Origin: an uncultured Micavibrio sp.
GTDB taxonomy: Bacteria > Pseudomonadota > Alphaproteobacteria > Micavibrionales > Micavibrionaceae
Assembly (NCBI GenBank): GCA_964473655.1
Contig: CAYYPX010000001.1
Location: 1-54,414, forward strand
Direction: 5' to 3'
Length of the DNA stretch: 54,414 nucleotides
The notes under the pieces were generated by a model. The model ran no database searches. It was not told the DNA's origin and saw nothing but the letters and a program-made list of their open reading frames with translations. Each line of letters opens with the position of its first letter. The stretch's first letter is position 1. Of the stretch, positions 13,473 through 30,800 are shown piece by piece. The translations under genes and the position numbers were made by a program.

Positions 13473-16025
13473 TCAGGCAATTGCGCCGTGATCGGCAACC
13501 AAAGAGCCGTTGTTGATGAGGGTTGCGAGGTCAACCCCACCTACGCCGCCCATGATGAGAGTTGCTGTAACGAACGCACCTTCACCATCGGCATTGATCT
13601 GGATCGCCGTATCCGAACCAGATTGAACGAGGCGAACGAAATTCGCGATATCGTCGGAAAGCGGATCGTATCCTTGCAACACATCATGAATGTTGATGAC
13701 ATCGCCTTCGGCAGCATTGAAATCATAGATTTTGTCAACTAGACCATCGACCAGAGTCATCGCGAAGGTGTCCGCGCCAGTACCGCCGTAAAGTTGATCC
13801 GCGCCAAGACCGAAGATCAGGATATCGTTTCCACCCTCGCCATAAAGAGTATCATTGCCCGCGCCGCCATCGAGAATGTCATTGCCGCCTTCTTCGTCAC
13901 GATTGACGACCTGATGAATATCAATGTCAAACAGCACATCTTCGTAATCGGAGTCGCCTAGATTGTACAAATCTTCAAAACCGATGCGCAGGACGTTAGA
14001 CTCATTCGCGTCCGTTACGATGGCAAGAATATTGTTCAGCCAGAAAGTTTCCGTTCCCGAAGACATTTGAATGCCTGTGATAAAACCTGCGCCAAAATCT
14101 TCGGCCGTCAGAACGATATCGAGAATCCCATTCGGAATGTTGCCGGTGTGGTAATTGTAATCGATTGGCGTAGCCGACCCGTTCATGAAAATTTTGAGCG
14201 CAATATCGGAATTACCAGCGATATCGGACAGGCTGACCACAATTTTTTCCGCGCCTTGATCCAGCGTTACTTTCAACGCTTCATTACCACCAATCGTGTT
14301 GCCGCCATCGACGGAAGTCTGGATACCGATCCTATCGCCGCCGGTGATCAGGTTTCCATCCAATGCTTCGACCGTCATGCCATTTTTTGTAAAGCTGTTC
14401 GGGCGCGTGGAGATATCCGCGTTCTTCGGATCAAGATAGATATGCGCGCCTGTGGAAATACCGGAGATAATGTGCGCTTTTCCATCTTCGTTTATGGCGG
14501 AACTCGCGCCGCGCTCGGTCGTCATGTACATATTGCCGTTTAGAATGCGCACCGTGCTGCCATCGTTATACACCAGCGCAACATCGGCGTTGGAATCTGT
14601 CACTTTCGCTGCACGTTGATCGGACTGACCGTAGTGATAAATAAACGAGAGCAAGCCATCGCCCGTAACGTTGATGCCGTTATAGCCACCATTCGCATTA
14701 TTACCGTTTGCGATGATAAAGAACCCGAACGAGCCGCCATCTACCCCGACAGGAATATCGATTGTGTGATCGACATCAATACCGGCGGTTTTAACGTTCT
14801 TCCACAGCATCGATGTATTCATGATGGTGCCATCGGCCGCCACGGCAAACATCCCCAAACTACTGTCATAGCCGGAATAACCTTTGCGGAACGTCAGCGT
14901 AGCCGTTGCACCCTGATCGATTGTAAGATTGCCGTCACTGATACCAATTGCAGGGCTGCTGGATGGGCGCACTGTTACGATATCAACGCCTTCTTCCAGT
15001 CTTGGAAGGATGGTGGAATCAGAAAATGTCTTGTCCCAGATGGAATGGATCAGCTTTCCATCATCACCATAGAGAACATCGTCGCCATCCCCGCCGAGCA
15101 ACGTATCATTCCCGCCCATACCGAACAGGATATCGTTATCAGCGCCACCATCGATATGGTCATTGTTGTTTCCGCCAGCAACCAAATCATCGCCCGAACC
15201 GCCGCTGATCGTCACGGGGCCGATATTCGTGGCAGAAGACAGATCAACCACATCATTGCCGGTACCGGCATCGATGACATCAATCCCCGACATATCTGTA
15301 TTGCCTGCTACGATCACATCGTTGCCCACCGTCATAACGATTGTATCGATACCGTTGTCGTGCGTGGTCAGCGTTTCATCCATATCGCCATGGAAAGAAT
15401 CAAGGCTGCGATTGTATCCTTCAAGCGTCAGCAGAATCGCAGAATTTTTAATGGAAGAACCAAGTGACGCCAGAGTCGTGCCAACTCCCCAAATAGAATC
15501 CGCATGATAAACCAACGTATCATTGCCCGCGCCGCCGTATAATTTGTCTTCGCCAGAACCGCCATCAAGATAGTCATCATCAAATCCGCCCGAAAGCGTA
15601 TCGTTGCCGCCGCCGCCATCCATGATGTCGTTGCCCGCGCCGCCTTGAAGAACATCGTTCCCAAGGTTCGACCAGATGATGTCGTTGCCGTTCGATCCGC
15701 GGATCGTAACATTGCCGTAAGTGACGGTGGAATGTGCGAGGTTGACGATATCGCCGTCATCGCCCGCAGAAATAATTTCGACATTCTTGATCATGATCGT
15801 GCCGTTCGCATCAACCAGTTCGAGAAGATCGCCCATCGATGTCATCGAAAGCGTGTCGGTTCCGCCGCGGCCATCATAGATGCCGTTGTTGACATTCATG
15901 TAGTCGGATATATTGATGGAGTAACCGCTATAAGGGTTGACGAGCGTACCGTTGAAAAACTGCTGCTCTCCGACAAAAGCCAGAAAGTTGTTTCCGTTCG
16001 TACCGGTAACGTTTACATACGGCAT
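13473..16025 (-). CDS. RTX calcium-binding repeat exoprotein with a DUF4114-like central region and a type I secretion C-terminal target domain
   Basis: Many GGxGxDxUx nonapeptides (GGAGNDIMDGGGGNDTLSGG, GGAGNDTLYGEGGNDIL). FEDLYNLGDSDYEDVLFD is DUF4114-like. The C-terminus, DVINIHDVLQGYDP...SGSDTAIQINADGEG...LINNGSLV, resembles the T1SS VC_A0849-type signal. Start MPYVNVTG at complement(16023..16025). Confidence 0.85.
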   Translation of the reverse strand: MPYVNVTGTNGNNFLAFVGEQQFFNGTLVNPYSGYSINISDYMNVNNGIYDGRGGTDTLSMTSMGDLLELVDANGTIMIKNVEIISAGDDGDIVNLAHSTVTYGNVTIRGSNGNDIIWSNLGNDVLQGGAGNDIMDGGGGNDTLSGGFDDDYLDGGSGEDKLYGGAGNDTLVYHADSIWGVGTTLASLGSSIKNSAILLTLEGYNRSLDSFHGDMDETLTTHDNGIDTIVMTVGNDVIVAGNTDMSGIDVIDAGTGNDVVDLSSATNIGPVTISGGSGDDLVAGGNNNDHIDGGADNDILFGMGGNDTLLGGDGDDVLYGDDGKLIHSIWDKTFSDSTILPRLEEGVDIVTVRPSSSPAIGISDGNLTIDQGATATLTFRKGYSGYDSSLGMFAVAADGTIMNTSMLWKNVKTAGIDVDHTIDIPVGVDGGSFGFFIIANGNNANGGYNGINVTGDGLLSFIYHYGQSDQRAAKVTDSNADVALVYNDGSTVRILNGNMYMTTERGASSAINEDGKAHIISGISTGAHIYLDPKNADISTRPNSFTKNGMTVEALDGNLITGGDRIGIQTSVDGGNTIGGNEALKVTLDQGAEKIVVSLSDIAGNSDIALKIFMNGSATPIDYNYHTGNIPNGILDIVLTAEDFGAGFITGIQMSSGTETFWLNNILAIVTDANESNVLRIGFEDLYNLGDSDYEDVLFDIDIHQVVNRDEEGGNDILDGGAGNDTLYGEGGNDILIFGLGADQLYGGTGADTFAMTLVDGLVDKIYDFNAAEGDVINIHDVLQGYDPLSDDIANFVRLVQSGSDTAIQINADGEGAFVTATLIMGGVGGVDLATLINNGSLVADHGAIA

Positions 16026-16294
16026 ACCCAATTCCCCAATTTGGCAGCTCTTATTTGTAGCCTTGGCTTGCCTTTGCGGCCCGTTACACACACCGGACCA
16101 ACAAACCATCTTATCAAATAAGAATAAATATTATGTAAAATTATATCCGTACTCTATTTACACGTACACTCTTAACGAAAGGTTAAAGAACGGCGGATTT
16201 CCGTCCTTTTCCACCGTACTTATATATGTGTCTTGCCTTTGCCTCGTCATTGGAGGATAAAACTGCATAACCATTTCAAGGACTTGCCCACCCT

Positions 16295-18467: not shown

Positions 18468-18485
18468 AACTATCTTTAATTAAAA

Positions 18486-18505
18486 ATCCCCGCGTCAGCG
18501 GGGAT
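18486..18505. terminator. Bidirectional intrinsic terminator (end of the SIMPL gene and of the four-gene operon)
   Basis: ATCCCCGC (18486-18493), loop GTCA, GCGGGGAT (18498-18505). It is flanked by A5 and T6 runs. Confidence 0.78.
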
Positions 18506-18509
18506 TTTT

Positions 18510-19106
18510 TTATGGCGAGGAGTCTCTTGGTTTTGGTGGATCAAAAGAAATTCTTTCTACAGGCGTATCATCCTCTATCCCCACAAGTTGCGGTGATTCC
18601 GGTGGCAGCGGGTTTGGCGGCGGCAGACTTCCATCAGCATTCGGCTCTATCTCTATAATTCTTGGACTTCGCGGATCATCGTAAACAGGAGCGGGTAAAA
18701 CGCCTTCCTTGTTATCATTGCTGGTATCCGCGCTCTTGTCCGGAATTTTGACATCGTCCTGCTCGTACCATTGAACCGCTTTTTTGCCCAAAAGAAATCC
18801 ACCAACGGCACCGACCGTGCCCGCAACGATAACACCTTTGGGACCAAGCACCACGCCGAGTGTCCCGCCAGCCTTCGCACCAGCAGCGGCACCCAGCAGC
18901 CGCTCGCTGCCCACACGGTCTTTTACGAACTGATAGCTTTCACCCACCACCAATTCGCCCGCCTTGATACCGATACGAAGACCTTTGCTGATCCACGAAG
19001 ATTTGCCGGCTGCAATGGTGAAGGCATCACGTGTAAAATTTTTAACCGCCGTGCTTTTTAATACTTCTTGGGCAATTGAATCTTGCTTCTTGTTATCTTC
19101 GCTCAT
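18510..19106 (-). CDS. Hypothetical membrane protein P4: glycine-zipper segment plus Pro-rich C-terminal tail
   Basis: RBS AGGGAGGA. LLGAAAGAKAGGTLGVVLGPKGVIVAGTVGAVGGFLLG is glycine-zipper-like. The tail is PPPNPLPPESP...PPKP. Last gene of the operon. Confidence 0.6.
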   Translation of the reverse strand: MSEDNKKQDSIAQEVLKSTAVKNFTRDAFTIAAGKSSWISKGLRIGIKAGELVVGESYQFVKDRVGSERLLGAAAGAKAGGTLGVVLGPKGVIVAGTVGAVGGFLLGKKAVQWYEQDDVKIPDKSADTSNDNKEGVLPAPVYDDPRSPRIIEIEPNADGSLPPPNPLPPESPQLVGIEDDTPVERISFDPPKPRDSSP

Positions 19107-19124
19107 TTTATCCTCCCTGTTCTC

Positions 19125-20018
19125 TTATGCGAATAACGGCCCTGTCGGAAATTCAACCCGCAGCACAACTGGCCGGTCTACCGCATAGGTTGGTTGCTGT
19201 TCCGATGGATTGGCCGGAGATTCTTGCGCAGCTTTCACTGCTGCCTGTTCGGCAGGTTTCATCGATTGATGAATTTCTTCTTGCGTTAACGGACGACAGG
19301 AGACATTCGTGACATTCTGATAAAGATCCAGCGTGTGATAGAAAGGCATACCTTTCCAGTGAAACCCGTATCCGGTGACTTCACACACGGCCATTTCGTT
19401 TGGAATGTTGGCATAAACATCTTCTTCCGGAAAAATCAGGAATGGCGAATACCAGCTTTTTTGAATTTGATAATATTCACCATTTCCTGAGTCTGTGCTA
19501 CACGGCAAAGATGTACATCCGGTAAATTGATATGTCTGTCCCGGAACAATTTCCTGTTTGCCTGTCGTGTAGATTGTTTGCGTGAATTGTGTGGTTTGAT
19601 AATAGACAGTATTCACCGCACCGATGGATGCAACGCCAAGACCGACTGCCAGTGTAAACATTCTGCACAAACGCCCTGCCGAAAAGATACGGTCACCATC
19701 GGCATCCAGTTTTTGCTTGCCGTCTTCGCGCTCATACGCCGCCCAACTGAACGCATCCATCAATTTTCCACCAACCCAACGCGCTGGAGTCAAAATCTTT
19801 TTGGCATAAGGACTTACTTTTTCATACAAATCCTGCGCGGCATCCCAGACTTTTCCGATTCTACGCACCGGCAACGTGATAAACCGGACAGCCTCCAGCA
19901 AAGAAGATCCGCTTTTCTTCGGATGCTCTTCTACCTCTTCGCGGGCTTCTATTTTTTTGGTAGTCAGCTGCGCCGCTCTTAAACTTTCTTGTGCTGCTCT
20001 CAATGCATCGTTTTTCAT
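19125..20018 (-). CDS. Hypothetical single-pass membrane protein P3 with a Cys-containing C-terminal domain
   Basis: GAGG RBS, 7 nt after the P2 stop. Helical N-terminus, TM segment MFTLAVGLGVASIGAVNTVYY, and a C-terminal domain with 4 Cys (TGCTSLPC...VCEV...SCRP). No family recognised with confidence. Confidence 0.6.
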   Translation of the reverse strand: MKNDALRAAQESLRAAQLTTKKIEAREEVEEHPKKSGSSLLEAVRFITLPVRRIGKVWDAAQDLYEKVSPYAKKILTPARWVGGKLMDAFSWAAYEREDGKQKLDADGDRIFSAGRLCRMFTLAVGLGVASIGAVNTVYYQTTQFTQTIYTTGKQEIVPGQTYQFTGCTSLPCSTDSGNGEYYQIQKSWYSPFLIFPEEDVYANIPNEMAVCEVTGYGFHWKGMPFYHTLDLYQNVTNVSCRPLTQEEIHQSMKPAEQAAVKAAQESPANPSEQQPTYAVDRPVVLRVEFPTGPLFA

Positions 20019-20025
20019 GTCAACC

Positions 20026-22365
20026 TCACATCATCATCGGCGCAAAAACATTGCGCAGGTTTGAGCCTTGGAACGGAGGCAGAGGACGTCCGCCACCGAC
20101 CACCTTTAAAGGCACCACTTCAGCAGAAGGCGCTTCAGGTATTGGCTCGTTTATATTGGCGGCATATCCCAATGTGAAAGAATCTTCGGGCTTACCCGTT
20201 GTCTTATAGGTCGCCGTAATAACACCGCCCGCCTTGTTGTCGGAATTTTCAAGGACGATGTCGGCGATTTTATCGGTCAGGTTGTTGGTCACGAATTTTT
20301 GAACCTGACGTGCGCCTTCCTCGACCTTGTATTTATCTTCCACAAGAGCGCGGATATCATCAACAGACAAAGCCACGGTGATTTTCTTTTCACCCATGCG
20401 CTTGTTCAAACCATCAAGATCGCGCTTGACGATCCGCTCGATGTTTTCGTTGCTATGCGCCTTTAACAGCAAAAATTTATCGATACGGTTGATCAACTCT
20501 TGCGGGAAAATCGCACGAGACTCACTCTTGATATCCGCCTCGCTGTTCGCTGATGTACGATAAGCATCGAACGACATTTTCTGTCCCAAATTGGTGGTCA
20601 TGATGATCACCGTGTTGCGAAAATCGACCGTACCCAATTCATCGCTCAAACGGCCTTTATCCAAAACCTGCAATAAAATTTTGAAAACATCTGGATGCGC
20701 TTTTTCAACCTCATCCAGCAAGATCACCTGATAAGGTTTACGGCGCACAGCGTTGGTGAGCGCGCCGCCTTCCCCATAGCCGGCATAACCCGGAGGCGCG
20801 CCGATCAAGCGTGATACCGTATGTTTTTCCATGTATTCGGACATATCGAATACGGTGAGCGAGTCTTTATCATCGTATAAATCTTCGGCCAGACATTCGG
20901 CGACATAGCTTTTTCCGATACCGGAAGAGCCTACGAGCATAAAAGAGCCGATCGGTTTTTGCGGATCTTTCAAACCGGCTTTTGCACGTTTGATAGCGCC
21001 GGAAATGGAATCGACCGCATCGTCCTGCCCAAATATTTTGTCCTTCAGTCGTTTATCAAGACCCATCGCCTTGGTCGCTTCATTGGCGTTCAAATCTTTG
21101 GCCGGAATACCGGAAATCTCCCCGAACAATTCGCGTACGTCCGAAACTTCAAGCGACAATTTATCGTTATGCTCGCCCTTCAAAGATTTTGCTTTTTCGG
21201 TTGCTTCAATAACTGCTTTACGGGTTTCACGAAGGAATTTTTCGATATCCTTAACATCCTGCGTCTTCATGCCGTTCAATTCGTTTTCGTTCGGCTCCCG
21301 TCCTTTTTCATCTTGAAATTTTCTTCTTAAGACGTCCATTTTTTCTTCAAGTTCGATCTCCAGCTTCACAACGTCTTTTTCTTGTTTGCGTTTTTCAAGA
21401 TAAGCGGCACCCAGCGCCTTTGCGCGAGCCCCCCATGATTCATTGATCGCATCGATTTTCTCTTTCAGGGCGGTCTTTGCTTCAGCATCTCCATCACCAA
21501 GAGCCGCCATTTTTTTCTCCAGCTCATCCAGCTCTTTCGGGCGGGATTGCATGCGGGATACGAATGTACTCGCGATCTGATCGCGCATTCGCAGAGCGCG
21601 GGATGGCTGTTCCCGCATATAGATACGAAGGTTCGGATATAAAAAGGTAAGGTTGACGATTTCAGCGTTTGCTTCGTCCGTGATGTGAAGGCCGTCATGG
21701 TGTTTTTCCAAACCTTCTTTGGATTTCGCCATGATATCGAGAACGACGTCTTTGGTCGGCGCTTTCTTTTCAACGATGGTAAAAAGTTCTGCCATTTCGG
21801 AATGTGCTTCCATCACTTGGCGCAGATTGTTACGGCCCGGCTCTTCACGAACCATCAGGATAGATTGAAACGCCCCTTTTTTCAGATCGCGGATGAAAGC
21901 GGATACCATACCTTGGCACTGATTGTCTTCGATACCTTTCAACCAATCATTGGCATCTTCGATGATCAGAACATGGTTTCCCGGTCTCTCCAGTTCTGCA
22001 AAAATTTTTTTGATATTCGCCTGAATTTTGTCCGGATCATTTTCTTCAAACAGCGTGTTCACATCGAGCAAAAGAAAACGGCGATCGATCATGTGCAGAG
22101 GCAATCTTTTTTCGCCCTCTTTCAACGTACCTTCGATCGTGTCTTTCTTACGCTGCGCGATACCCTTGATCGTTGCGGTCTTTCCAAGGCCGGATTTGCC
22201 GACATAGATGATATTGCTGTTCTGACTCTGGCCCAAGATGCTGGACAGTTTTTCGATGTCGCCGTCCCCGACCAGATTGAAATCCGCGTTCAACATATCG
22301 AGTGAGTCTTCGAGATCGTGCAAAAGTTCGTTCTTGCGCTTATCGGCAAGAGGCTTGGTGGTCAT
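20026..22365 (-). CDS. Atypical ClpB/ClpV-like Hsp100 AAA+ ATPase (no N-domain, degenerate NBD1, canonical NBD2)
   Basis: NBD1: GKSGLGKT (Walker A) but VLIIEDAN in place of hhhhDE, and no KYRGEFE pore loop. A long charged coiled coil resembles the middle domain. NBD2: GSSGIGKS, VILLDEVEKAH, GAPPGYAGYGEGG, TVDFRNTVIIMTTN, ELINRID. The C-terminal extension of about 60 aa is unrelated to ClpB. Confidence 0.85.
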   Translation of the reverse strand: MTTKPLADKRKNELLHDLEDSLDMLNADFNLVGDGDIEKLSSILGQSQNSNIIYVGKSGLGKTATIKGIAQRKKDTIEGTLKEGEKRLPLHMIDRRFLLLDVNTLFEENDPDKIQANIKKIFAELERPGNHVLIIEDANDWLKGIEDNQCQGMVSAFIRDLKKGAFQSILMVREEPGRNNLRQVMEAHSEMAELFTIVEKKAPTKDVVLDIMAKSKEGLEKHHDGLHITDEANAEIVNLTFLYPNLRIYMREQPSRALRMRDQIASTFVSRMQSRPKELDELEKKMAALGDGDAEAKTALKEKIDAINESWGARAKALGAAYLEKRKQEKDVVKLEIELEEKMDVLRRKFQDEKGREPNENELNGMKTQDVKDIEKFLRETRKAVIEATEKAKSLKGEHNDKLSLEVSDVRELFGEISGIPAKDLNANEATKAMGLDKRLKDKIFGQDDAVDSISGAIKRAKAGLKDPQKPIGSFMLVGSSGIGKSYVAECLAEDLYDDKDSLTVFDMSEYMEKHTVSRLIGAPPGYAGYGEGGALTNAVRRKPYQVILLDEVEKAHPDVFKILLQVLDKGRLSDELGTVDFRNTVIIMTTNLGQKMSFDAYRTSANSEADIKSESRAIFPQELINRIDKFLLLKAHSNENIERIVKRDLDGLNKRMGEKKITVALSVDDIRALVEDKYKVEEGARQVQKFVTNNLTDKIADIVLENSDNKAGGVITATYKTTGKPEDSFTLGYAANINEPIPEAPSAEVVPLKVVGGGRPLPPFQGSNLRNVFAPMMM

Positions 22366-22436
22366 AGTGAAACTCCCTGTGTGTGTCTTTTTTATATTTT
22401 TAGTTTTTTATTCATGGTCCCGAGTGCCCAGTGGAA

Positions 22437-22459
22437 CCGTATCCTTTTTGGGGATACGG
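22437..22459 (-). promoter_or_regulatory. Intercistronic RNA hairpin between P1 and P2
   Basis: CCGTATCC (22437-22444) and GGATACGG (22452-22459), an 8-bp perfect stem in the 110-nt P1-P2 gap. No U-tract follows on the mRNA strand. Confidence 0.4.
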
Positions 22460-22475
22460 CCCCACCCACACAGGG

Positions 22476-24203
22476 TTAACCCATCGAAGGAGCCGAGGGA
22501 GCCCCAACGCCAAGTTGACCATCTTTTACAAAGACCCTGCGGTTGATTTCACCGTCTATAGCCAACGAATCTTCGTTTGCTTTACCAAGGTCTTGGGTTG
22601 TTTTGATCAAACGGTCGATCAGTTCTTTCCTTGTGCCGGCAATATCCAACATTATATCATTGCCCTCACTCATGGTTTCCGTGACCGCACGAACAGCATC
22701 GCTCATTGTTTTGATGCCTTCATTCTTTGCCATTTGAGCCATGAATTTACGCTCCATATCCTTGGCAAAATCACCCAAGAAGGTGTGCGTTTCACGCGTA
22801 TACAATCCACGGCTGACCAAACTCTGAACATCAGTTGCAAGACCTTCGATCCGCATGATCGTGGCATTACCGGTAACAGCCGCACTACCAACAGCCATCA
22901 ATTGATGTTCCATGGCATCATTCAAACCAGACTTCATTTGGTCTTTCATATTCGAAAGTTGGGTTTGCGTTCTTTCTAGTTCACTCGATACGGAAGCCGT
23001 AGTCTGCACCGTCTTTTCTACCGAGGAAACGTGGTCATTTAAAAACCGCAACTTCTTCTCTCGCTTCATACCTTCAATACCGGTTGACGCATCTGTTGCT
23101 TCGATCTCTTTGAGTTTGATGGCGTTATTTTCTTGCGCCTTCCTTTGAGCATCCAGAAGAATTGAAACATTTTCTGCCGTGTTCTGTGTCAGCGTATGAA
23201 CATCAATAACGCGACCATGCAACACGCCCAGCTGCTTTCCAACGCCTTTCAATGTGTCAGTTGTGTTTTCGATATAATTCAACGTCGCATCAGCAAGTGC
23301 TTTTAATTTTTCCTTGAACTCTTCAGAACCAATATCAAGAATTTCCAATATTTGTTCATGCACCTTGTAATCACTACCTTGCAAAAACGTTTCAAAAGCT
23401 GCCGCTTTGCCGGTGAGATCCGTTGTGGCAGTTGTCAAATCTTCCCTTTTTAGACTTGTGTCAGCTTCGATCTCTGCCAATTTTATTTTATTGGCGACGA
23501 TACGACGCTTCTTTTCGCCTTTGAAGAATAAGAAACTATCTTTTTCTTCTTCAGCAATCACCGTTTTCAGCGCCAGTGCTTCTCTGTCTTTTGTTTTAAC
23601 GGCGGCGTTTATGACCTCAACGCCCTTACGCAACTCTTCAAGCTGTCTTTCAAGTTCTTTCTTTTCTTCCGTCTTGTCTTTAGAATTGAGCAATGCCTTG
23701 ACCAGACCTTCCGGTCCACCATGTTCGGTCAAGATTTTATCGATCACAGCAAGTTTGTCTCTTAACTCCGCACGACCTTCATCCATCGCATGATAGTTTT
23801 CAAAAACCTCTCGAAGGTTGGTCTGTAGCTCAGAAAGCGGGTTGTCACGCGCAAGTCGAATCATTGCCTTGTTATGCTCGGTGAAATCATCCAGAAGCTG
23901 CCCAACAGCCGCTTGGTTTTCAGCGATCGATTTCAGGTTTGCTTCGAGGTCCTCTTCATTGAAGAACAATAGTTCGGCGATTTTGTCGGCTTTTTCTTTC
24001 GGGTCGAGCGAGGCGTCGTTCAGAATTTTGAAAATCGGTGAGTTGGAGACATCGATTTTCGACGTGGCCACAGCCACATCCTGTTCTTCCGCACGCGTAC
24101 GGCGAAAACGGCCTAGCCCTGTACTTGCTTTGGTTTCGCCTGACTCAGCGGCGCGCATTCTCTCGGCAACCGCCGCAAAGCGGGGTTTCATTTGATCGGT
24201 CAT
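22476..24203 (-). CDS. Hypothetical 575-aa coiled-coil protein P1 (first gene of the operon)
   Basis: RBS context ACACAGGGAG. Basic, disordered N-terminal stretch of about 45 aa, then nearly continuous Glu/Lys/Leu-rich helical sequence. No enzymatic motif and no TM segment. Family not recognised. Confidence 0.7.
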   Translation of the reverse strand: MTDQMKPRFAAVAERMRAAESGETKASTGLGRFRRTRAEEQDVAVATSKIDVSNSPIFKILNDASLDPKEKADKIAELLFFNEEDLEANLKSIAENQAAVGQLLDDFTEHNKAMIRLARDNPLSELQTNLREVFENYHAMDEGRAELRDKLAVIDKILTEHGGPEGLVKALLNSKDKTEEKKELERQLEELRKGVEVINAAVKTKDREALALKTVIAEEEKDSFLFFKGEKKRRIVANKIKLAEIEADTSLKREDLTTATTDLTGKAAAFETFLQGSDYKVHEQILEILDIGSEEFKEKLKALADATLNYIENTTDTLKGVGKQLGVLHGRVIDVHTLTQNTAENVSILLDAQRKAQENNAIKLKEIEATDASTGIEGMKREKKLRFLNDHVSSVEKTVQTTASVSSELERTQTQLSNMKDQMKSGLNDAMEHQLMAVGSAAVTGNATIMRIEGLATDVQSLVSRGLYTRETHTFLGDFAKDMERKFMAQMAKNEGIKTMSDAVRAVTETMSEGNDIMLDIAGTRKELIDRLIKTTQDLGKANEDSLAIDGEINRRVFVKDGQLGVGAPSAPSMG

Positions 24204-24238
24204 TACTTTTACTCCCTGTGTATAGTTTTTTGTTATTA

Positions 24239-24261
24239 AAGTAATACTTTGAGTATTACTT
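24239..24261. promoter_or_regulatory. Perfect 10-bp inverted repeat AAGTAATACT-TTG-AGTATTACTT in the P1 5' leader
   Basis: Arms at 24239-24248 and 24252-24261 are exact reverse complements, 36-58 nt upstream of the P1 ATG. Candidate operator or 5'-UTR hairpin. Confidence 0.35.
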
Positions 24262-24366
24262 GTGATTACGAACGCCGCTTTTGCGGGCCGTTTTGCAAAT
24301 CACGTGATGTACGTGGGTTGCGGATCGTCTGTCCCGAGATTAAAAAATCTAGGAAAAACAAACGGT

Positions 24367-24388
24367 TCTAACGCCATACGGCGTTGGA
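24367..24388 (-). promoter_or_regulatory. Terminator/attenuator-like hairpin in the operon leader
   Basis: On the mRNA strand: TTCcAACGCC-GTAT-GGCGTTaGAA, then CCGTTTGTTTTT. It lies immediately downstream of the 10-codon uORF. Confidence 0.35.
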
Positions 24389-24389
24389 A

Positions 24390-24422
24390 TTAGGATGGTT
24401 TTGTGGATTTGGATGTGATCAT
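24390..24422 (-). CDS. Candidate leader peptide uORF (MITSKSTKPS)
   Basis: ATG at complement(24420..24422), preceded by the same ACACAGGGAG element that precedes P1 and P2. 10 codons plus TAA. Very short, so chance cannot be excluded. Confidence 0.2.
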   Translation of the reverse strand: MITSKSTKPS

Positions 24423-24451
24423 GTTTTAGCTCCCTGTGTGTTTTATTTTGT

Positions 24452-24473
24452 GGCCTTCTTTATGTAGAAGGCC
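24452..24473 (+). terminator. Orphan hairpin plus T-tract (plus-strand orientation) in the divergent control region
   Basis: GGCCTTCT (24452-24459), a 6-nt loop, AGAAGGCC (24466-24473), followed by CGATATTTTTATTT. No plus-strand CDS lies upstream. Confidence 0.35.
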
Positions 24474-24896
24474 CGATATTTTTATTTGTTATTAATACTA
24501 TCTTAAATTTTTACTTTATTGTCAACAAATTTTGTAAATTTATACAAGCTCCTAAAAATCTATACTTGCAAGGCTCGTTGCTTTGTAAAAAATCGCATTT
24601 CGGAACGCAAAAGAAGAGGGGCAGCAACGCAGAAGGTCACATATCAATGCCAAAATACAAGATTACGTAAAAAATTTAGCAGATTTCCGGCATTTTATGC
24701 CTCTTGAGGCGCAGATAGATACAATTTTAGTAAATTTGGAGGCATTTTGGACGCCTTTTGTCGCCAAATGGTTAACAAAATTCTTTCTTGGCCAAGTGGT
24801 ACTTTTAATTATATCATTAGAATCAATAGATTACTGTTGGTTTTTCCCTCCCCCCATCCTTACGATTTCCCGCGCCTTTTATAGTAAAATTTAAGA

Positions 24897-27800
24897 ATGC
24901 TCGTTCCAAAGAAATACAGCCGCGTGCTCATGCACACGACCGCATTGGTCGCGGCACTTTGTGTGGGTGGAACGAATGCTTTCGCAGAACCAACTGGTGG
25001 CACAGTGACATCGGGTTCTGCCGGGATTTCCACGAGTGGCAATACCACCTCGATCCTGCAATCAACAGACCGCGCAATCATTCGTTGGGACACGTTCGAT
25101 ATCAATTCATCCGAACACGTACAATTTTTACAGCCGAACAGTTCTTCGATCACGGTCAACAGAATTCGTGATTCCAAAGCATCGCAAATTGATGGCCGCC
25201 TTAGCGCGAACGGAAATATTATTTTGATTAACCCGAACGGCATTTTGTTCGGCGCAAGTTCGGTGGTTGATGTCGGCGGGCTCATCGCAACCACATCCGA
25301 TCTTGATGATGACAATGCGTTCATGAATGGCGGCGCGGTAAAATTTACAAAGCCCGGGGACCCCAATGCAAAGATCGTCAACAGCGGTACCATAACCGTA
25401 CGCGATGGCGGGCTTGTCGGGCTTGTCGCCCCGAATGTTGAAAACCACGGCGTGATACAGGCGAAGCTCGGAAAGGTACATCTGGCCTCCGGTGATATTC
25501 ATACAATCGATTTGGCCGGCGATGGTTTGATCAAGCTCGAAGTCTCTGAACACGTGTACGCGCAATCCGTTAAGAACACCGGTACGATCAAAGCAGATGG
25601 TGGTGAAATTCTTTTAACAGCTGCCGCCGCCCGTGGCATTGTCGATACGTTGGTGACGAACACAGGTACATTGCAGGCGAACACGGTGACCCTCACCGAT
25701 GGTACACAAAAAACGGGTCGTATCACGGTCTCTACGTACGGCCTCAATCTTACAGTTCCACATGACATCACCGTTACCACGCCCGATCTAGCCGTGCAGC
25801 CGCCGCGCATCATCAATACAGGCACATTGTCCGTAAATGGTGACCTTGTGGATCAAGTGGCGGGTAGCATCACCGTTTTGGGCAAACTGATTCAAATCGG
25901 CGATGGATCGGTCGTCACGGCATCGGGTGATTCCGGCGGCGGCGATATCCGCATCGGCGGCGATTACCAAGGCGGCAACAACGTTCCAACATCCGACATG
26001 GTATTCATTTCCGAACACGCGATTTTGAGCGCGAACGCACGTCGTCGCGGCGATGGCGGCCGGATCATTTTATGGTCGGATGAGAACACGCGATTCTACG
26101 GCCACGCGGAAAGCATGGGTGGCATCGATGGTGGCAACGGCGGATTGATCGAAGTCTCCAGCAAAAAATTCCTCGATTTTAACGGGACAACGGATCTTCG
26201 CGGAGAGACGAACGGTATCCTGCTTCTTGACCCAACGGACATCACAATTTCCACCGGCGCGAATTCCAACGTGAATGGTGCATCGCCCTTCGCACCAACA
26301 GCCGATGATGTCGTTTCGGTTTTGAATATCACGACACTTCAAGCCGCGCTTGCATCTGGTAACGTCATCGTACAAACCCGCGCAACAGGCGCGCAGGCCG
26401 GTAATATCACCGTTGCCAATGCCTTGTCATGGACAAGCGGTAACACTCTTACACTCGATGCGCATGGCGGCATCATCGTCAACGCCGCGATCGCAGCGAA
26501 CAGCGGTAGCATCACGATGATTGCAGGTGCGGATGTTGCATTCAACGCGAACATCACAGGGACCGGCACGATCACAATTCGCCAAGCGAATGATTCGATG
26601 ACGATGGGTATCGCGGGCGGGGCGGGCACGCTCAACCTAAGCGCGGCAGATCTCACACGCATCGTCGATGGATGGGGCAATATTATTCTAGGCCGCGCAA
26701 CATCGACAGTTGCCACCACCGTCAACGCACGGACATGGAATGATAATCTAACGATTCTTTCCGGAACGGGCGCGGTCAACATCGCGGGCACGCAAACGAT
26801 GGCGGCGAACACATTGACCATCACAACGGCAAACGGCGCGGTCGGTATCGGCGGCATGGCAGGCACGACCGGCGGATTAACAGTAAGTAGCGGCGGCGCG
26901 GCGATCAGCATCACCGGCGCGGTTGCCACGGGCGGCGCGGTCAGTTTGACGTCCGCCGGCGGTACGATTTCGAATTCGGCGACGTTGGGTTCGGGCGCAC
27001 TGACCATGACATCGGGCGGAGGCATTATCACACTCGGCTCTGCGGTCACCGCAACCGGCACGACCAATATCAACTCCGGCGCGGGCGCACTTAATATTAA
27101 TGCGGCCCTAAGCTCGGGTACGAACGCCCTCACACTCACAACGGCAGGATCGAATATCACAACAAACGCATCGGGCGCGATCACCGGCGGTGTCATTAAT
27201 ATGACGACATCGGGCGGCAACATCGTAACCGGTTCCACCATCACCGCATCGAATACAACAACGTTGAACAGCGGCGCAGGTCTTATCAATCTTGGCGGAA
27301 ACCTGAATGCCGGCGCAAACTCGGTTAGCCTAACCACAACAGCGCGCACCATCACAACACTCGGCCTGACATCGAGCGGCCTGACCATCAATTCCAACGG
27401 TGCCAACGTTTCTACGGGCGCTATCTCCGCCAGCGGCGCGGTTTCCATCACCAGCGGCGCAGGCACAATCAATGTCGGCGCGATCACGTCTGGTACAAAC
27501 GCCGTTACATTGACATCAACCGGATTTGGTATCACAACCGCCGCCATCACATCTGGCGCCCTCTCTATAGCATCGAGTGGTGGTATCATCACAACGAACG
27601 GCGCGATTGCAGCAGCAGGGATTACCAACATCAATTCCGGCGCGGCAGCGATGAATATCAATAACGCGCTCGGTTCCGGCGCATTCGCGATGACATTGAC
27701 AACAACGGGAACCGCCATAACAAAGAACAACACAGGCGCGATCACATCCGCAGCATTGACGATCAACACATCGGGCGGAAATTTAAGCATCGGCACGGCA

Positions 27801-30800
27801 GGCGTCGCAGCCACCGGAACAGTTGCGGTTAACACCGGTGCAGGAACCGTTAATGTTACAGGGACATTCTCCTCCACCGCCGCAACATTGGGTATCACTA
27901 CGACGAACGCCGCTATCACACTCGCGGGCGTCACGTCAGGGGCGTTGAACCTTGCATCCGGCGGCGCGGCGATCATCACAGGCGCGATCACGGCAACAGG
28001 CGCGGTCGGCATTAACGCAGGCGCAAACACAATCAATGTCGGGGCGATTGCCGCCGGTACAAACGGCGTGACACTAACCACCGTCGGTTTTGGCATCACC
28101 ACAGCCGCGGTCACATCGGGTGCGTTCACGGTTGGATCAGGCGGCGGTATCATTAATTTCAACGGCAACATAGCCGCAAGTGGCATTACAGGCATTACAT
28201 CTGGCGGTGCCGCCGTCAATGCAAACGCTGCCTTTGGCGCAGGTGCGCTCACCATCACAACAGCAGGTGGTGCCTTTACCAAAGCCAACACCGGTGCGTT
28301 GACCGCCAGTACCATGACAATCACAACAACGAACGGTAATGTGAGCATCGGCACCGGCGGTGTCACCACCACTGGTGCAACAAACATAAACGCCGGAACA
28401 GGTTCTATCGCCATCGGCGGAACATGGACAGCAACCGGACAAACCATCGCGCTGACCACAAATAACAACACGGTCAACAAAGGCAATTCCACATCCGCAG
28501 CATTGACGGTCAACACATCGGGCGGTGCGGTTACATTCGCAGGCACAACAACAACAACCGGTATCCTGACCATCAACTCAGGCGCCGGGAATGTCGCGTT
28601 GAATGCAGCCGTCAATACGGCAGCAAACGCCTTCAACATCACCACGACAGGCGGCGAGATCAACAAAGCCGCCGCCATCACATCGACGGGTGCACTGACA
28701 TGGGCCAGCGGCGGCGGTAACATTATATGGGGTACGGGTGCGCTTACTGCAGCAACAGGATCAACAAGCTTGAACAGCGGCGGCGGTAACATCACGATCG
28801 GCGGATCGGGAATTGTTTACACCACGGGCGGCGCGGTGACATTGAACAGCGGCGCAACCGGTGTAATCTCTATCAACAATGTTATCACGACGGGAACGGG
28901 TGCTCTCGCCATCACAACAGACACCGACATGGTGATAGGCGCAGCGATTTCGGGAACGGGCGCTTTCTCTCTGACACAATTCTCTGCAGGAACCACGATC
29001 GGTATCGGCGCAGGGCAAGCAGGTACTATTAATATAAGCGCGGCGGAATACGCCTTGATCGGTCAAACATGGAGCGGTCTCACCATCGGCCGTATCGATG
29101 GTACGGGCGCAATCAACATTGCCGCCACAACATGGGGCGATAATTTAACGCTACGTTCATCGACAGGTGTCATCAGCTTGAATGGCGCACAAAACTTTGC
29201 CGGTAACAGTTTTACGATTACAACGGACGCCGACATCGTGGTCGGTGGACAATTGACCGGTACCGGTACGCTCACCATCGCACCGCAAACAAACACCACA
29301 ACAATCGGTATCGGCACCGGACAAACCGGAACGATTTCCTTTACTGATGCGGAAAAAGCGTTCCTGCACACAACATGGGGCAGCATCATCATTGGTTCGG
29401 TCAATATGACCGGCGATATAAATATCGGCGCGACGTCATGGCTCGATCCACTTACATTGCGCACCAATACTGGTGTCATTAATATCAATGGCGCACAGAC
29501 AATGGCGGCCAACGCACTGACCATCAACACCAACGCCGACCTCAACCTCGGTGGAAATCTTTCCGGTACGGGTGCGCTCACTATTTCAACCGTCGCCTCT
29601 AGCTCCACCACCATGGGATTCGGCGATGGACAAGTCGGAACGCTGAATCTGACCAACGCAGAGCTAAGCCGCATTCAATTCGGATGGTCGGGTATTACGC
29701 TAGGCAGCACGACAGCCGCCGGCACACTCAATCTTGGCGCGTGGACATGGGATGACGTTCTGACCGTTACAACGGCAGGCGGCAACATCAATATGGGCGC
29801 CACGACGATGACAGTAACGAACGGCCTGAACGTGACGACAACAACAGGTAACGTTGTTCTTGCCAACGCAACTTTCGGAACAACAGGTGCCCTGACCATC
29901 ACAACAACATCCGGCGGCGTGACTTTGAATGGCGCAACGATGGGAACAGGGAACCTTACCGTCAACACCAACGGAAACCTTGTCGTCGGCGGAAACCTGA
30001 ACGGTTCTTCCTCCAGCACGCTGACCATCCAAGGCCAAGCGAACGCAACAACAATGGGTATCGGCGATGCTCAGGTCGGCACGATCAACTTAACCAACGC
30101 CGAACTTGATTTCATTCAAGATGGCTGGGGCTCTCTCGTCTTTGGTCTGACAACATCGACCGGCGCGGTCAATCTTGGTAACTACACATGGAAAGACGCA
30201 CTGACAGTCCGCAGTGGATCCGGTCTTATGACCGTCGATGGCGCGACAATGGGCGCAAACAATTTGACCATCATGACAGATTCCGCCTTTGCTTTGAATG
30301 GAGCATTGTCAGGGACGGGAACTTTGACACTACGTTCCACGTCGAACGTCGTGAGCATGGCGATCGGTGACGGACAGACCGGAACGGTCCAGCTAAGCTC
30401 AACAGAACTTGCCAACATCCAAAGCAACTGGAACAGCGTTATCATCGGTCATGCGGGTCTGACCAATACGATGAATATCGGGCAGATGACATGGGGCAAC
30501 AACATTACCTTCTTGTCTAACAGCGGCGCGATCACCGTCAATGGTGCGCAGCAGATGGGCGCCAACAACCTGACATTCACCACCAACGCGGATCCGACTT
30601 TTGCGGCAGGCCTTGCCGGTACGGGAATTCTAACCATTCAATCGACGACCAACAGCATCGATATGGGTATCGGCGATGGTCAGGCCGGTAACGTTCTTCT
30701 TTCCAACGCCGACCTTGGAAATATTCTGAATGGATGGAATCAAATCGTCTTTTCAACGACGGGCACCGGCGCGGATATCAATCTGGGTGCTTACACATGG

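Follow-up and report, generated by a model that had tools for sequence, protein, structure and literature searches.

A conserved three-gene unit with a ClpB-derived AAA+ protein, a long helical protein and a membrane protein in bacteria and jumbo phages

The P1, P2 and P3 genes, encoding a long helical protein, an AAA+ protein derived from ClpB and a membrane protein, respectively, form a conserved and so far undescribed unit that is new as a system. The unit was studied in a 54,414-nucleotide stretch of DNA (the window) from an uncultured Micavibrio sp. (contig CAYYPX010000001.1, positions 1 to 54,414). The reading that we prefer, albeit tentatively, is that of a membrane-tethered Hsp100 driven by its second ring (D2) and remodelling assemblies of P1, this mechanism being one that we infer. 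The original prediction, in which a four-gene operon was read from the letters alone, is partly supported: the four open reading frames (ORFs) are present, but the conserved unit consists of the three genes P1-P2-P3. Its picture of an ATP-driven envelope module that had not been described before is a fair one, P2 being an atypical Hsp100 and P1 and P3 having no known family.

Organization of the locus

The four ORFs lie exactly at the coordinates originally given, and the claimed gaps of 110 nt (P1-P2), 7 nt (P2-P3) and 18 nt (P3-P4) were also found:

22476-24203, minus strand: P1 gene, 575 aa, the first of the conserved triad
20026-22365, minus strand: P2 gene, 779 aa
19125-20018, minus strand: P3 gene, 297 aa
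18510-19106, minus strand: P4 gene, 198 aa

The AT-rich region described upstream of the operon extends over 693 bp (24204-24896) and has a GC content of 36.4%, versus 50.4% in the whole window. Since P1, P2 and P3 each have dozens of homologues and their order is conserved, they are far beyond chance ORFs.

Distribution, synteny and phage copies

In a search carried out with P3 alone on 185,579 species representatives, homologues were identified in only 34 genomes; the triad is rare and patchy. In 32 of these 34 genomes P1 and P2 are located upstream of P3 in an unchanged order, so that the gene order does recur; of the other two loci, one is truncated at the end of its contig and the other has just P3. 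The median gaps across the loci are 86 nt (P1-P2) and 14 nt (P2-P3). Besides jumbo phages, the carriers of the triad are alpha- and gammaproteobacteria and Desulfuromonadales. The sub-clades are congruent between the trees of the three proteins, and the Desulfuromonadales group with the Cellvibrionaceae; this indicates that the triad has been transferred as a block.

No other recurrent gene family was found in the flanks. The statement that no genes of the type VI secretion system (T6SS) are present at the operon holds true, and none recur beside the triad in the bacterial loci surveyed. The operon had also been thought to help in exporting or handling the giant adhesin/RTX proteins encoded next to it, or in cell contact. 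It is indeed divergent from the adjoining gene of a 3851-aa TPS-domain protein in the window, where an RTX protein lies about 2.4 kb away, and RTX giants occur downstream of the triad in one other locus (L006). The flanks nevertheless differ in nearly every genome, and across 13 phage contigs and more than 30 other genomes the triad lies among quite different neighbours: the synteny survey largely refutes an adhesin/RTX-specific role, and we regard this local explanation as very improbable.

The triad was identified in the same order in the Agrobacterium jumbo phage Atu_ph07 (gp493, gp492, and gp488) and in 12 large-phage contigs of IMG/VR. All three proteins have true homologues there (HMM E-values 1e-150 for P1, 6e-217 for P2 and 7e-16 for P3), and P3 gave a full-length structural match with gp488 (E = 3e-10). 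The phage proteins group with the "type B" bacterial branch. They differ from the bacterial ones in that the middle region of P2 is shorter, P3 shares only about 20% identity with its bacterial counterpart and, in Atu_ph07, three extra genes separate the P2 and P3 homologues. The gp492 protein has been named simply ClpB in the literature (PMC6102473).

The presence of the triad in both bacteria and large phages is a point in favour of the main rival explanation, that of a phage-host conflict, to which we give a smaller though still appreciable chance. The triad would serve superinfection exclusion or anti-phage defence, or would be a phage tool manipulating the envelope of the host. In such a scheme, events at the envelope would be sensed or blocked by P3, and P2 would act by unfolding a target or by switching on an effector. 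This effector would be P1, or else P1 would be a coiled coil that transmits a signal. For jumbo phages the benefit would be the exclusion of competitors, and for bacteria, which would have taken up the triad, it would be immunity. Its rarity, its block-wise horizontal transfer across phyla and its autonomy from variable flanks fit this picture, as does the one locus that has an inovirus-like region and the HsdR gene of a type I restriction system beside it. The NBD2 domain of P2 also resembles the ClpB-like parts of the candidate defence systems PDC-M37B and Dodola (DolB) in PADLOC (E 1e-24 to 3e-28), although these matches are confined to this generic domain and the partners in those systems are unmatched by P1 or P3. 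Neither P1 nor P3 matches any PADLOC model, which is weak evidence against a conflict since the copy used dates from 2023. Also against it, the 33 bacterial loci are flanked mostly by housekeeping and envelope genes, with single, scattered defence-type matches; a tRNA gene adjoins the triad in just 3 of these 33 loci; none of 72,556 plasmids carries the triad; and an effector domain of the nuclease, protease, pore-forming or NADase type was not detectable in it.

The AAA+ protein P2

In P2 a degenerate NBD1 is followed by a middle domain, by NBD2, which is intact, and by a C-terminal tail specific to the clade. The matching profiles were AAA_2 (4.6e-58), AAA_lid_9 and ClpB_D2-small. All the motif strings previously reported (GSSGIGKS, VILLDEVEKAH, GAPPGYAGYGEGG, DFRNT, and LIIEDAN) were found in the translation. 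The absence of the ClpB/ClpA N-domain was confirmed, since the residue-level alignment with Thermus thermophilus ClpB covers only residues 176-827; in the same alignment, the KYRGEFE pore loop is missing from NBD1, as previously claimed, and so are the ERRF arginine fingers. P2 scored 390 bits with ClpB (TIGR03346, cut-off 1232), 340 bits with ClpV1 (TIGR03345, cut-off 885) and 348 bits with ClpA (cut-off 993). The possibility that it might prove to be a housekeeping ClpB can therefore be set aside.

In the family motif table, the Walker A motif of NBD1 reads GxGGVGCSA in most members, the lysine being replaced by a cysteine, as is also the case in the phage proteins; Walker B reads ED or DD across the family, and the arginine fingers, sensor-1 and pore-loop tyrosine of NBD1 are all absent. 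Judging from these motifs, NBD1 is a pseudo-ATPase family-wide, a point missed in the original prediction, and the first ring of this class-1, ClpB-derived AAA+ protein has been turned into a non-catalytic scaffold. All the NBD2 motifs are conserved in 35/35 members, and the second ring, as read from its sequence, keeps every ATP-hydrolysis motif as well as the pore-loop tyrosine for polypeptide threading. Since the ClpP-docking IGF/L loop is not present, P2 can be taken to be an unfoldase or remodeller and not the partner of a protease. The length of the middle region ranges from 97 to 181 aa across the family.

The closest relatives of P2 by sequence are the ClpB and Hsp104 disaggregases, with which it shares about 31-33% identity and, from the N-NBD1 linker onwards, the same order of NBD1, coiled-coil middle domain, NBD2 and D2-small; the NBD2 motifs are virtually identical, including GAPPGY and the DE Walker B, and neither carries the ClpP loop. 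This kinship, along with the retention of the middle domain, suits an ordinary set of stress chaperones in which P2 would be a spare disaggregase paralogue and P1 and P3 would be co-chaperone-like helpers, supporting bulk proteostasis, for example during protein overproduction by jumbo phages, as proposed for the Atu_ph07 "ClpB gp492": the authors of that study read gp492 and a phage DnaJ as aggregate removers (PMC6102473). Unlike ClpB/Hsp104, however, P2 lacks the substrate-binding N-domain, NBD1 catalysis and the NBD1 pore loop throughout the family, lies far under the ClpB equivalog cut-off, and is strictly linked to two dedicated partners, one of which is a membrane protein. The middle region is variable, being down to 97 aa in some phage versions, and the heat-shock genes dnaK, ibp and grpE are not recurrent nearby. 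We therefore consider this explanation improbable.

ClpV/TssH is another class-1 AAA+ protein, and P2 may be likened to it as a specialised Hsp100 serving one helical assembly instead of bulk aggregates. The N-domain of ClpV binds the sheath protein and both of its rings are active, whereas P2 has neither the N-domain nor two active rings, and its genes do not lie beside those of a T6SS.

The long helical protein P1

The near-continuous helix predicted behind a basic, disordered N-terminus was borne out by the AF2 model (pLDDT 72.5), which is all-helical at about residues 51-559 of the window protein, after a low-confidence basic N-terminus; the pTM of this model is low (0.42) and no informative fold match was obtained. 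The family comprises 124 representatives at 50% identity, and nearly all the full-length members are about 530-630 aa long, apart from a few longer ones and some fragments. P1 is acidic (pI about 5), with no cysteine in 32/33 members. According to the model, this acidic, Cys-free protein of roughly 560 aa is a bundle of very long helices whose basic N-terminal tail is disordered. That no family was originally recognised agrees with the Pfam, NCBIfam, PADLOC and PHROG comparisons, which were all empty, and with the absence of any significant match in the PDB, whether in sequence or in fold. Neither a signal peptide nor any segment with the hydrophobicity of a transmembrane helix was detected, the maximum 19-residue Kyte-Doolittle score being 0.93 in the window protein. 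A small-residue hydrophobic helix (GVAGVADRLSxVLxAVSxAAL) is conserved in type-B and phage P1. Two candidate relationships were rejected using hhalign, those with ClyA-type pore formers and with PspA/ESCRT-III-type proteins (comparison with PspA). Since the P1 profiles are unrelated to both of these types, the idea of a P1 polymer is drawn by analogy only.

The membrane protein P3 and the accessory protein P4

P3 had been described as a single-pass membrane protein with a four-Cys outer domain of no recognised family, and this description stands. It has one clear hydrophobic helix at about residues 117-138 with a positively charged N-flank, cytoplasmic N-terminal helices and an extracytoplasmic beta domain at 144-243 (AF2, pLDDT 75.6), which includes the invariant motif TGCTSLPCST and four family-invariant cysteines (C168, C173, C212, and C241). 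None of its 89 homologues is named; it matched neither a solved structure nor a family in Pfam, NCBIfam, PADLOC or PHROG, and the OB-fold-like matches among the PDB folds were not significant. In the phage homologues the cysteines are lost or kept strictly in pairs (one pair is lost in three phages) and insertions between the first and second cysteines are tolerated, which argues for disulfides, probably C168-C173 and C212-C241, rather than a metal site. P3 is thus likely to be an inner-membrane protein of N-in/C-out topology with a disulfide-type beta domain outside. This topology is no more than likely, since the transmembrane helix is just weakly hydrophobic in part of the clade of the window and a second hydrophobic segment occurs in many type-B proteins. 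Conservation is much higher in the outer domain of bacterial P3 than in P1 or P2, which hints that P3, rather than P1, may be the functional focus.

The anchoring of P4 in the membrane as a core component was not upheld. Its homologues are located 3' of P3 only in the window and in loci L002/L008 and L010, with a weak overlapping match in L007, and P4 is, as far as the sequences indicate, a clade-specific add-on outside the conserved core. Its description as a small membrane protein of glycine-zipper type with a Pro-rich tail holds: a glycine-zipper-like hydrophobic stretch (70-101) and the tail are present, and the family matches are all sub-threshold (PRK11280, 2.9e-5, 24 bits with a cut-off of 99; Gly-zipper_Omp, 0.079).

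In eukaryotic membrane AAA+ machines a small anchored protein recruits a ring ATPase, and helical or coiled-coil partners are acted on. Pex1/Pex6 has an inactive D1 and an active D2, and PTEX uses a ClpB-type Hsp100. The logic of Pex1/Pex6-Pex15(26), Vps4-ESCRT-III, NSF-SNARE, and PTEX HSP101-EXP2-PTEX150 is shared with the triad by analogy only: P1 and P3 show no detectable sequence or fold relation to the partners in these machines, and P2 descends from bacterial ClpB and not from the classical AAA clade. By the same analogy, P2 docked on P3 might pull proteins from or through the inner membrane, as Pex1/Pex6 does on Pex15/26 or HSP101 in the Plasmodium PTEX, with P1 as the cargo or as a channel-forming or adaptor subunit. 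The apparently dead D1 and active D2 of P2, the obligatory membrane partner, the hydrophobic helix of type-B and phage P1, and the lack of cysteines and disordered ends of the P1 family, which are traits common among exported proteins, are compatible with such extraction or translocation. An oligomeric channel cannot be inferred from the single span of P3, however, and P1 has neither a signal peptide nor a transmembrane-grade segment and is unrelated to the ClyA-type pore formers; nor does any outer-membrane component co-occur in the flanks of the triad. The odds on this explanation are accordingly poor.

Control elements and RNA structure

The following elements were found in the window:

24497..24525, minus strand: sigma-70-like promoter (TTGACA, 17 nt, GATAGT), the best promoter-like site in the region, with 10/12 matches
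24390..24422, minus strand: 10-codon leader ORF MITSKSTKPS, read from the sequence
22366..22475, minus strand: RNA structure in the P1-P2 spacer, predicted by folding
18482..18509 (about), minus strand: intrinsic-terminator-like hairpin directly 3' of the P4 stop codon

When five type-A upstream regions were aligned, the promoter block proved invariant as TTGAC-N17-TTTAAGATAGT. The 5' region of the operon would contain a leader ORF in the clade of the window: that in the window shares its strong Shine-Dalgarno sequence (ACACAGGGAG) with P1 and P2, a small hairpin and a T-rich stretch lie 3' of it, and short leader ORFs occur at the equivalent position in L003 (MIIFHHISVS), L007 (MIKLHTTSP), L009 (MIISSQTSP), and L010 (MTKQHAS). 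The terminator claimed 3' of the operon was seen on direct reading as AAAAATCCCCGC-tgac-GCGGGGATTTTT, the consensus scanner not having listed it; this hairpin is bidirectional and is shared by the operon and the convergent SIMPL gene.

The P1-P2 spacer of the window (MFE -41.8 kcal/mol, z = -3.9 versus dinucleotide shuffles) includes a 15-bp hairpin (arms 22466-22452 and 22444-22430) and a closing helix in which CCCUGUGUG (22475-22467) pairs with CACACAGGG (22383-22375), the latter strand overlapping the P2 Shine-Dalgarno sequence. This long-range anti-SD helix appears to tie the translation of P2 to that of P1 in the clade of the window. No Rfam family was matched by the spacer. A strong stem-loop (z < -2) is present 3' of the P1 gene in 19/30 loci, with U-tracts in several cases, and the spacers of the other 11/30 show no significant structure. 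This stem-loop or attenuator, obtained by RNA folding, suggests that P1 is made in excess. With this indirect sign of excess expression behind it, we infer that P1 is a substrate or scaffold, as originally proposed.

Proposed mechanism

In the preferred reading, that of P1 remodelling by a tethered P2, P1 would be present in stoichiometric excess and would assemble into a helical structure on the cytoplasmic side of the membrane. The P2 hexamer would be brought to this site by P1 itself, by the part of P3 that lies in the cytoplasm or by both, docking through its dead D1 ring or its middle domain. D2 would then pull on a disordered end of P1, so that the assembly would be disassembled or reset, following the logic of ClpV with the T6SS sheath, Vps4 with ESCRT-III or NSF with SNAREs. 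P1 could also be an adaptor or an effector instead of a substrate of the P2 pore, or could be unrelated to threading. The outer domain of P3 would couple the cycle of P1 and P2 to something in the periplasm or envelope, and the occurrence of the triad in jumbo phages shifts the likely biology towards an interplay between phage and host.

Conservation and genomic context of the P1-P2-P3 genes

The four ORFs are carried by the minus strand of the window at the positions originally predicted, and are separated by intergenic gaps of 110, 7, and 18 nt:

22476-24203, minus strand: P1, ORF of 575 aa
20026-22365, minus strand: P2, ORF of 779 aa
19125-20018, minus strand: P3, ORF of 297 aa
18510-19106, minus strand: P4, ORF of 198 aa

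The gene order was found to recur in other genomes, where P1-like, ClpB-like, and P3-like genes occur in this order among otherwise unrelated neighbors. When one genome per GTDB species was scanned with P3 patterns only, 34 loci were obtained, in 32 of which P1 and P2 homologs (detected with HMMs built from our own alignments) are located directly upstream of P3, with order and strand unchanged. One of the two remaining loci is cut at a contig end, and the other (L039; L-numbers denote homologous bacterial loci in other genomes) carries P3 alone. The median gaps are 14 nt between P2 and P3 and 86 nt between P1 and P2. The carriers include Alphaproteobacteria (Micavibrio-like and other MAGs, Hyphococcus, and Rhodospirillales), numerous Gammaproteobacteria (Halopseudomonas, Motilimonas, Pokkaliibacter, Vibrio sp. 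Of7-15, Wenzhouxiangellaceae, Woeseiaceae, Luteimonas, and Cellvibrionaceae), and Desulfuromonadales.

The four-gene conserved operon originally proposed was not borne out: the window, L002/L008, and L010 are the only loci with a P4 homolog 3' of P3, to which L007 adds a weak overlapping match, so that P4 is limited to one clade and the constant unit is P1-P2-P3 (the triad). P4 has a glycine-rich hydrophobic stretch at residues 70-101 and is a candidate glycine-zipper-like small membrane protein. It matches no Pfam, NCBIfam, PADLOC, or PHROG family above threshold, its scores with PRK11280 (24 bits; cut-off 99) and Gly-zipper_Omp (13.3 bits; cut-off 25) being below the limit.

The clustering of all the flanking ORFs revealed no further family common beyond close relatives, and no recurrent neighbors were detected in 35 bacterial or 13 phage loci. 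A functional link with neighboring adhesin genes, as suggested in the original prediction, is thus largely refuted by the synteny survey, the flanks being otherwise unrelated, and we consider it very improbable. The 107 immediate flanking proteins matched 168 different Pfam families and scattered single PADLOC models. The location of the triad in defense islands was rejected, since the bulk annotation of these 107 proteins showed no enrichment, as was its location in genomic islands, a tRNA gene being adjacent in just 3 of 33 loci subjected to tRNA scanning. No match to P3 or P1 was obtained by tblastn against plasmids. As regards known defense systems (PADLOC-DB v2, 2023), P1, P3, and P4 match none, and P2 is matched via its generic NBD2 only. 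Two large genes of the window show no connection with the triad elsewhere:

24897-36452, plus strand: 3851-aa protein with a TPS secretion domain at its N-terminus and long repeats in its interior
13473-16109, minus strand: 878-aa RTX calcium-binding repeat protein

P2, a ClpB-derived protein with a degenerate first ring

All the P2 strings cited in the original prediction are present in the translation. P2 matches the Pfam families AAA_2 (4.6e-58, second module), AAA_lid_9 (2.8e-6, Clp NBD1 lid), and ClpB_D2-small (2e-10), and aligns over its full length to ClpB structures (E = 1e-92). It therefore has the features defining Hsp100/Clp class 1, namely two tandem AAA+ modules, a Clp-type NBD1 lid, an AAA_2-type NBD2, and a D2-small domain. 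Among the NCBIfam models, ClpB is the nearest, and every curated cut-off is missed by far: P2 scored 390.6 bits with the ClpB equivalog TIGR03346 (cut-off 1232.1), 339.6 bits with ClpV1/TssH TIGR03345 (cut-off 884.95), and 348 bits with ClpA (cut-off 993). The alignment begins at residue 176 of Thermus thermophilus ClpB, which means that the N-domain is absent; about 33 residues precede this point and give no Clp_N match.

As had been predicted, NBD1 is atypical, the KYRGEFE pore loop being missing upon alignment to ClpB. In the window P2, its Walker A reads GKSGLGKTA, its Walker B reads IIED (ED for DE), and AELF replaces the ERRF arginine fingers. The motif table drawn up from the homologs of 35 loci shows that NBD1 is degenerate across the whole family, most members of which lack even the Walker A lysine (GxGGVGCSA). 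All the NBD2 motifs are retained in the family, namely both Walker motifs (A and B), the pore loop (GAPPGY), the arginine finger, and sensors 1 and 2. The middle region, through which ClpB cooperates with DnaK, is retained and is 143-181 aa long in bacteria and 97-146 aa long in phages (97-181 aa overall). P2 therefore differs from housekeeping ClpB, as originally claimed, in its equivalog score, its lack of an N-domain, and the competence of its NBD1. It also lacks what defines ClpV and the ClpP partners. Its identification as ClpV/TssH was rejected because of the score and the lack of T6SS partners among the neighbors in the bacterial and phage loci, and that as a ClpA/ClpC/ClpE/ClpX-type partner of ClpP because of the lack of an IGF/IGL docking loop: [IVL]G[FLM] occurs between sensor-1 and the arginine finger in only one of 48 members, which is not the window P2. 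Taken together, the loss of the N-domain, the decay of NBD1, the intact NBD2, and the lack of a ClpP loop mark P2 as a predicted unfoldase, derived from ClpB and driven by D2 alone, whose D1 ring is, judging from these residues, non-catalytic.

The window also encodes a D1-only Clp-like ATPase, consisting of a stand-alone AAA + AAA_lid_9 protein of 339 aa (12410-13429, minus strand), the gene of which adjoins the RTX protein gene. It gives a weak match to the P2 HMM (3e-14) and lies outside the conserved synteny.

P1, a long helical protein

In line with the original prediction that P1 and P3 are outside the described families, P1 matches no Pfam, NCBIfam, PADLOC, or PHROG family above threshold, and Pfam searches on 48 diverse members gave scattered coiled-coil noise and no family. 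An exhaustive profile search of 1.84 billion representatives yielded 124 related clusters. The full-length members are nearly all about 530-630 aa long, the exceptions being a few longer proteins, alongside some fragments; none carries an added known domain. In the AlphaFold model (pLDDT 72.5, pTM 0.42), P1 is helical from residue 51 to residue 559, individual helices being as long as 100 residues, and begins with a disordered basic N-terminus. Members of the family are acidic (pI about 5), and cysteines are absent from 32 of 33 of them. Foldseek searches of the PDB with this model gave nothing below E = 0.01, the matches being generic coiled coils with a TM of about 0.14, and profile searches of PDB sequences with the P1 and P3 alignments returned only keratin, coronin, and designed coiled coils.

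Several identities were considered for P1 and rejected. A PspA/Vipp1/ESCRT-III protein is not supported by hhalign (48-sequence profile against Escherichia coli PspA, probability 0.5%) and none occurs among the Foldseek matches. In the case of a ClyA/Hbl/Nhe-type pore former, hhalign against E. coli HlyE gave a probability of 0.2%; AhlB and SmhB are present among the Foldseek matches with E = 0.3-0.4 and a TM of about 0.14, and the maximum 19-residue hydropathy of the window P1 (0.93) is too low for a membrane-inserting segment. A likeness to TelA-type proteins was dropped, none of the 48 members matching the TelA Pfam family.

In type-B and phage P1 (type B comprises most other bacterial triads, and type A is the sub-clade of the window), the C-terminus consists of an acidic disordered linker followed by a terminal aromatic motif (…PFGF, …AFGF, …PFGL) that resembles a docking peptide and is lacking in the type-A P1 of the window. 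In L004, from Motilimonas eburnea, the triad is preceded, at a distance of about 1.4 kb, by a diverged second P1 paralog (positions 2974-4593, 539 aa, HMM E = 8e-99), after which comes an ORF of 138 aa with no annotation; the same is true of L032.

P3, a putative bitopic membrane protein

P3 has 89 homologs, none of which is named, and no Pfam, NCBIfam, PADLOC, or PHROG family matches it above threshold. Conservation is striking in its C-terminal domain (YTTGKQEI...TGCTSLPCST...YPEEDVYANIP...SCRP), which includes four invariant cysteines. In the model (pLDDT 75.6), N-terminal helices are followed by a hydrophobic helix (114-142) with a positively charged N-terminal flank, and by a compact beta domain (144-243). 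In phage P3, the cysteines are retained or lost strictly in pairs (C168 with C173, C212 with C241), and the C1-C2 spacing varies. The charge of the flank and the pairwise loss are consistent with an N-in/C-out topology and with two disulfides located outside the cytoplasm, and a zinc site formed by the four cysteines was dropped in favor of these disulfides because of the pairwise loss and the variable spacing. In Foldseek searches of the PDB, the outer domain matched dozens of OB folds (SSB, PriB, and CusF), all with non-significant E-values (0.1-1) and target-normalized TM values of up to 0.5. A profile of the outer domain alone retrieved just the same family, with no new architectures.

Giant eukaryotic viruses (Fadolivirus and Pyramimonas orientalis virus) encode small proteins of 104-119 aa that match the P3 outer domain in Foldseek searches of BFVD, with target-normalized TM values of 0.6-0.68, E-values of 5e-4 to 2e-2, and identities of up to about 21%. 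The orphan P3 homolog in L039 (9704-10372, 222 aa, E = 2e-79) is preceded by a lipoprotein-like gene, and the 9.7 kb upstream of it contain neither P1 nor P2. Going by this gene content, P3 may be able to work alone, or the locus may have decayed.

Occurrence of the triad in jumbo phages

Neither tblastn searches of cultured phages with P3, even at E = 10, nor an IMG/VR scan with the bacterial P3 alignment gave any match. Foldseek searches of predicted viral structures with the P3 model gave a full-length match (E = 3e-10) to an uncharacterized protein of the Agrobacterium jumbo phage Atu_ph07, which was reached only in this way and then via the match of P2 to a phage "ClpB" gene. The region consists of gp493 (543 aa), gp492 (661 aa), three small genes, and gp488 (237 aa), and HMM matches identify gp493 as P1 (1e-150), gp492 as P2 (6e-217; Walker A GPGGVGCST), and gp488 as P3 (7e-16). 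A scan of IMG/VR with the P1 alignment, to which the phage protein had been added, yielded 13 viral contigs of 24-518 kb, 12 of which carry the triad in the same order, the thirteenth being cut. Nothing but the triad is common to these contigs, the flanks of which contain 104 PHROG families typical of large phages (NAD salvage, HNH endonucleases, clamp loader).

No description of the P1-P2-P3 triad was found in the literature. In the Atu_ph07 paper, gp492 is given simply as ClpB, among chaperones thought to aid host survival during infection (PMC6102473), and the part of its supplement available to us holds no virion data for gp488 or gp493 (PMC6102473). That the triad might be a plain stress-chaperone set seems to us improbable.

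Evolution of the module

The neighbor-joining trees of the three proteins, which carry no support values, show the same sub-clades. Since the Desulfuromonadales nest with a gammaproteobacterial family in these trees, the triad appears to move as a block. Three groups can be distinguished: type A (the clade of the window, in which the NBD1 Walker A lysine is retained), type B, and the phages.

Amino acid identities between the groups
Type A versus type B: P1 16-17%, P2 32%, P3 34-40%
Phages versus type B: P1 33-40%, P2 46-51%, P3 about 20%

In the case of P1 and P2, the phages are near type B and type A is the outlier, whereas in that of P3, the bacterial types are near each other and the phages are the outliers, being about 20% identical to either bacterial type. 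The outer domain of bacterial P3 is thus unusually constrained, more so than the cytoplasmic components. The three proteins differ in rate: bacterial P3 shows 34-46% identity between types A and B, as against just 16% for P1. At three alphaproteobacterial loci, P1 and P2 are of type B and P3 groups with the type-A (alphaproteobacterial) P3s, which suggests either a host-linked constraint on P3 or an exchange of P3.

The distribution of the three genes among phages and bacteria, their rarity, and their transfer as a block would suit a role in phage-host conflicts, in the form of exclusion or defense, but this finds no support in the content of the flanks or in known defense models; we regard it as the principal alternative to the mechanism proposed below, possible although rather unlikely.

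Expression signals

The AT-rich control region predicted upstream of P1 is 693 bp long, with 36.4% GC as compared with 50.4% in the window, and the predicted terminator downstream of P4 corresponds to a hairpin rich in GC and bordered by runs of A and T, 3' of the stop codon. The signals are as follows:

About 18482-18509: hairpin after the P4 stop, AAAAATCCCCGC tgac GCGGGGATTTTT, read from the sequence
22375-22475, minus strand: P1-P2 spacer with a long-range helix, in which CCCUGUGUG pairs with CACACAGGG and a 15-bp hairpin is enclosed
24390-24525, minus strand: promoter-like block and leader ORF region upstream of P1, also present in L003, L007, L009, L010, and L002

RNA folding predicted a strong stem-loop in the P1-P2 spacer at 19 of 30 loci (z < -2), and several of these spacers contain U-tracts resembling intrinsic terminators. 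P1 is thus presumably produced in excess over P2 and P3. In the window (MFE -41.8 kcal/mol, z -3.9), CCCUGUGUG consists of the 9 nt directly 3' of the P1 stop codon and CACACAGGG overlaps the P2 Shine-Dalgarno (SD) sequence; the same arrangement is present in the L007 spacer. In the type-A clade, P2 translation would be coupled to the termination of P1 translation, and in the window the helix could act as the coupler.

Upstream of P1, a promoter-like block TTGAC-N17-TTTAAGATAGT is common to five type-A loci. It is followed about 45 nt 3' by a strong SD sequence (ACACAGGGAG) and then by a leader ORF of 7-10 codons, after which the sequence forms a small hairpin and becomes T-rich. Of the five loci aligned, four (the window, L003, L007, and L009) have the same strong SD sequence and a leader ORF of 9-10 codons, that of the window encoding MITSKSTKPS (24390-24422), while L010, outside the five-locus alignment, has a 7-codon ORF; the peptides elsewhere are MIIFHHISVS, MIKLHTTSP, MIISSQTSP, and MTKQHAS. 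This region resembles either an attenuator of the leader-peptide type or a small gene. Rfam has no family for the leader or for the P1-P2 spacer. In the window, a perfect AT-rich palindrome, AGTAATACT-caa-AGTATTACT (24240-24260), precedes the P1 SD sequence by about 20 nt and may be an operator site; it is not retained in the aligned relatives.

Possible mechanism

The triad is an autonomous unit common to phages and bacteria, in which P2 is a predicted D2-only threading motor with no protease partner, P1 is a long helical protein with disordered ends, and P3 is probably bitopic with an extracytoplasmic disulfide domain. By analogy with ClpV and its sheath, Vps4/ESCRT-III, NSF/SNARE, and Pex1/6-Pex15, P1 might form an abundant helical assembly at the membrane, to which P2 would be brought by the cytoplasmic part of P3 and/or by P1, via the dead D1 ring or the middle domain. 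P2 would then thread P1 from a disordered end, which would result in the disassembly of P1, and P3 would link this cycle to the envelope. We regard this mechanism as a whole, in which a membrane-coupled P2 disassembles a P1 assembly, as a reasonable proposal with somewhat less than an even chance of being correct. The likelihood that the triad is a translocation or extraction device is slight.

A broader reading, which we put forward as tentative, is that jumbo phages and bacteria share a hitherto unrecognized kind of Hsp100 machine coupled to the membrane. P3 would anchor a ClpB-type motor working by D2 alone, and this motor would drive the coiled-coil protein P1 through cycles of assembly and disassembly, or would translocate it, acting on or across the inner membrane, for example so as to repair or reshape this membrane or to block it during phage infection. 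Vps4/ESCRT-III, Pex1/6, or PTEX would then have a prokaryotic and viral equivalent in this machine.

Significance

Hsp100s specialized on one dedicated client are rare, ClpV being the textbook case. As a system, the triad is a client-dedicated Hsp100, and as far as the libraries scanned are concerned, P1 and P3 appear to belong to no described family. It amounts to a whole ClpB-derived sub-family in which the first ring has been inactivated and the N-domain lost, and which is locked to two unannotated partner families. The fact that the same three genes are present in lytic jumbo phages and in unrelated bacteria means that they are useful on both sides of the phage-host divide. The Agrobacterium phage Atu_ph07 and the cultured strains of Halopseudomonas, Motilimonas, Pokkaliibacter, and Vibrio provide tractable entry points. 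Working out the triad would add a client-specific AAA+ remodeling system and give a function to two orphan families, and may uncover a new step, linked to the envelope, in infection by jumbo phages or in bacterial immunity.
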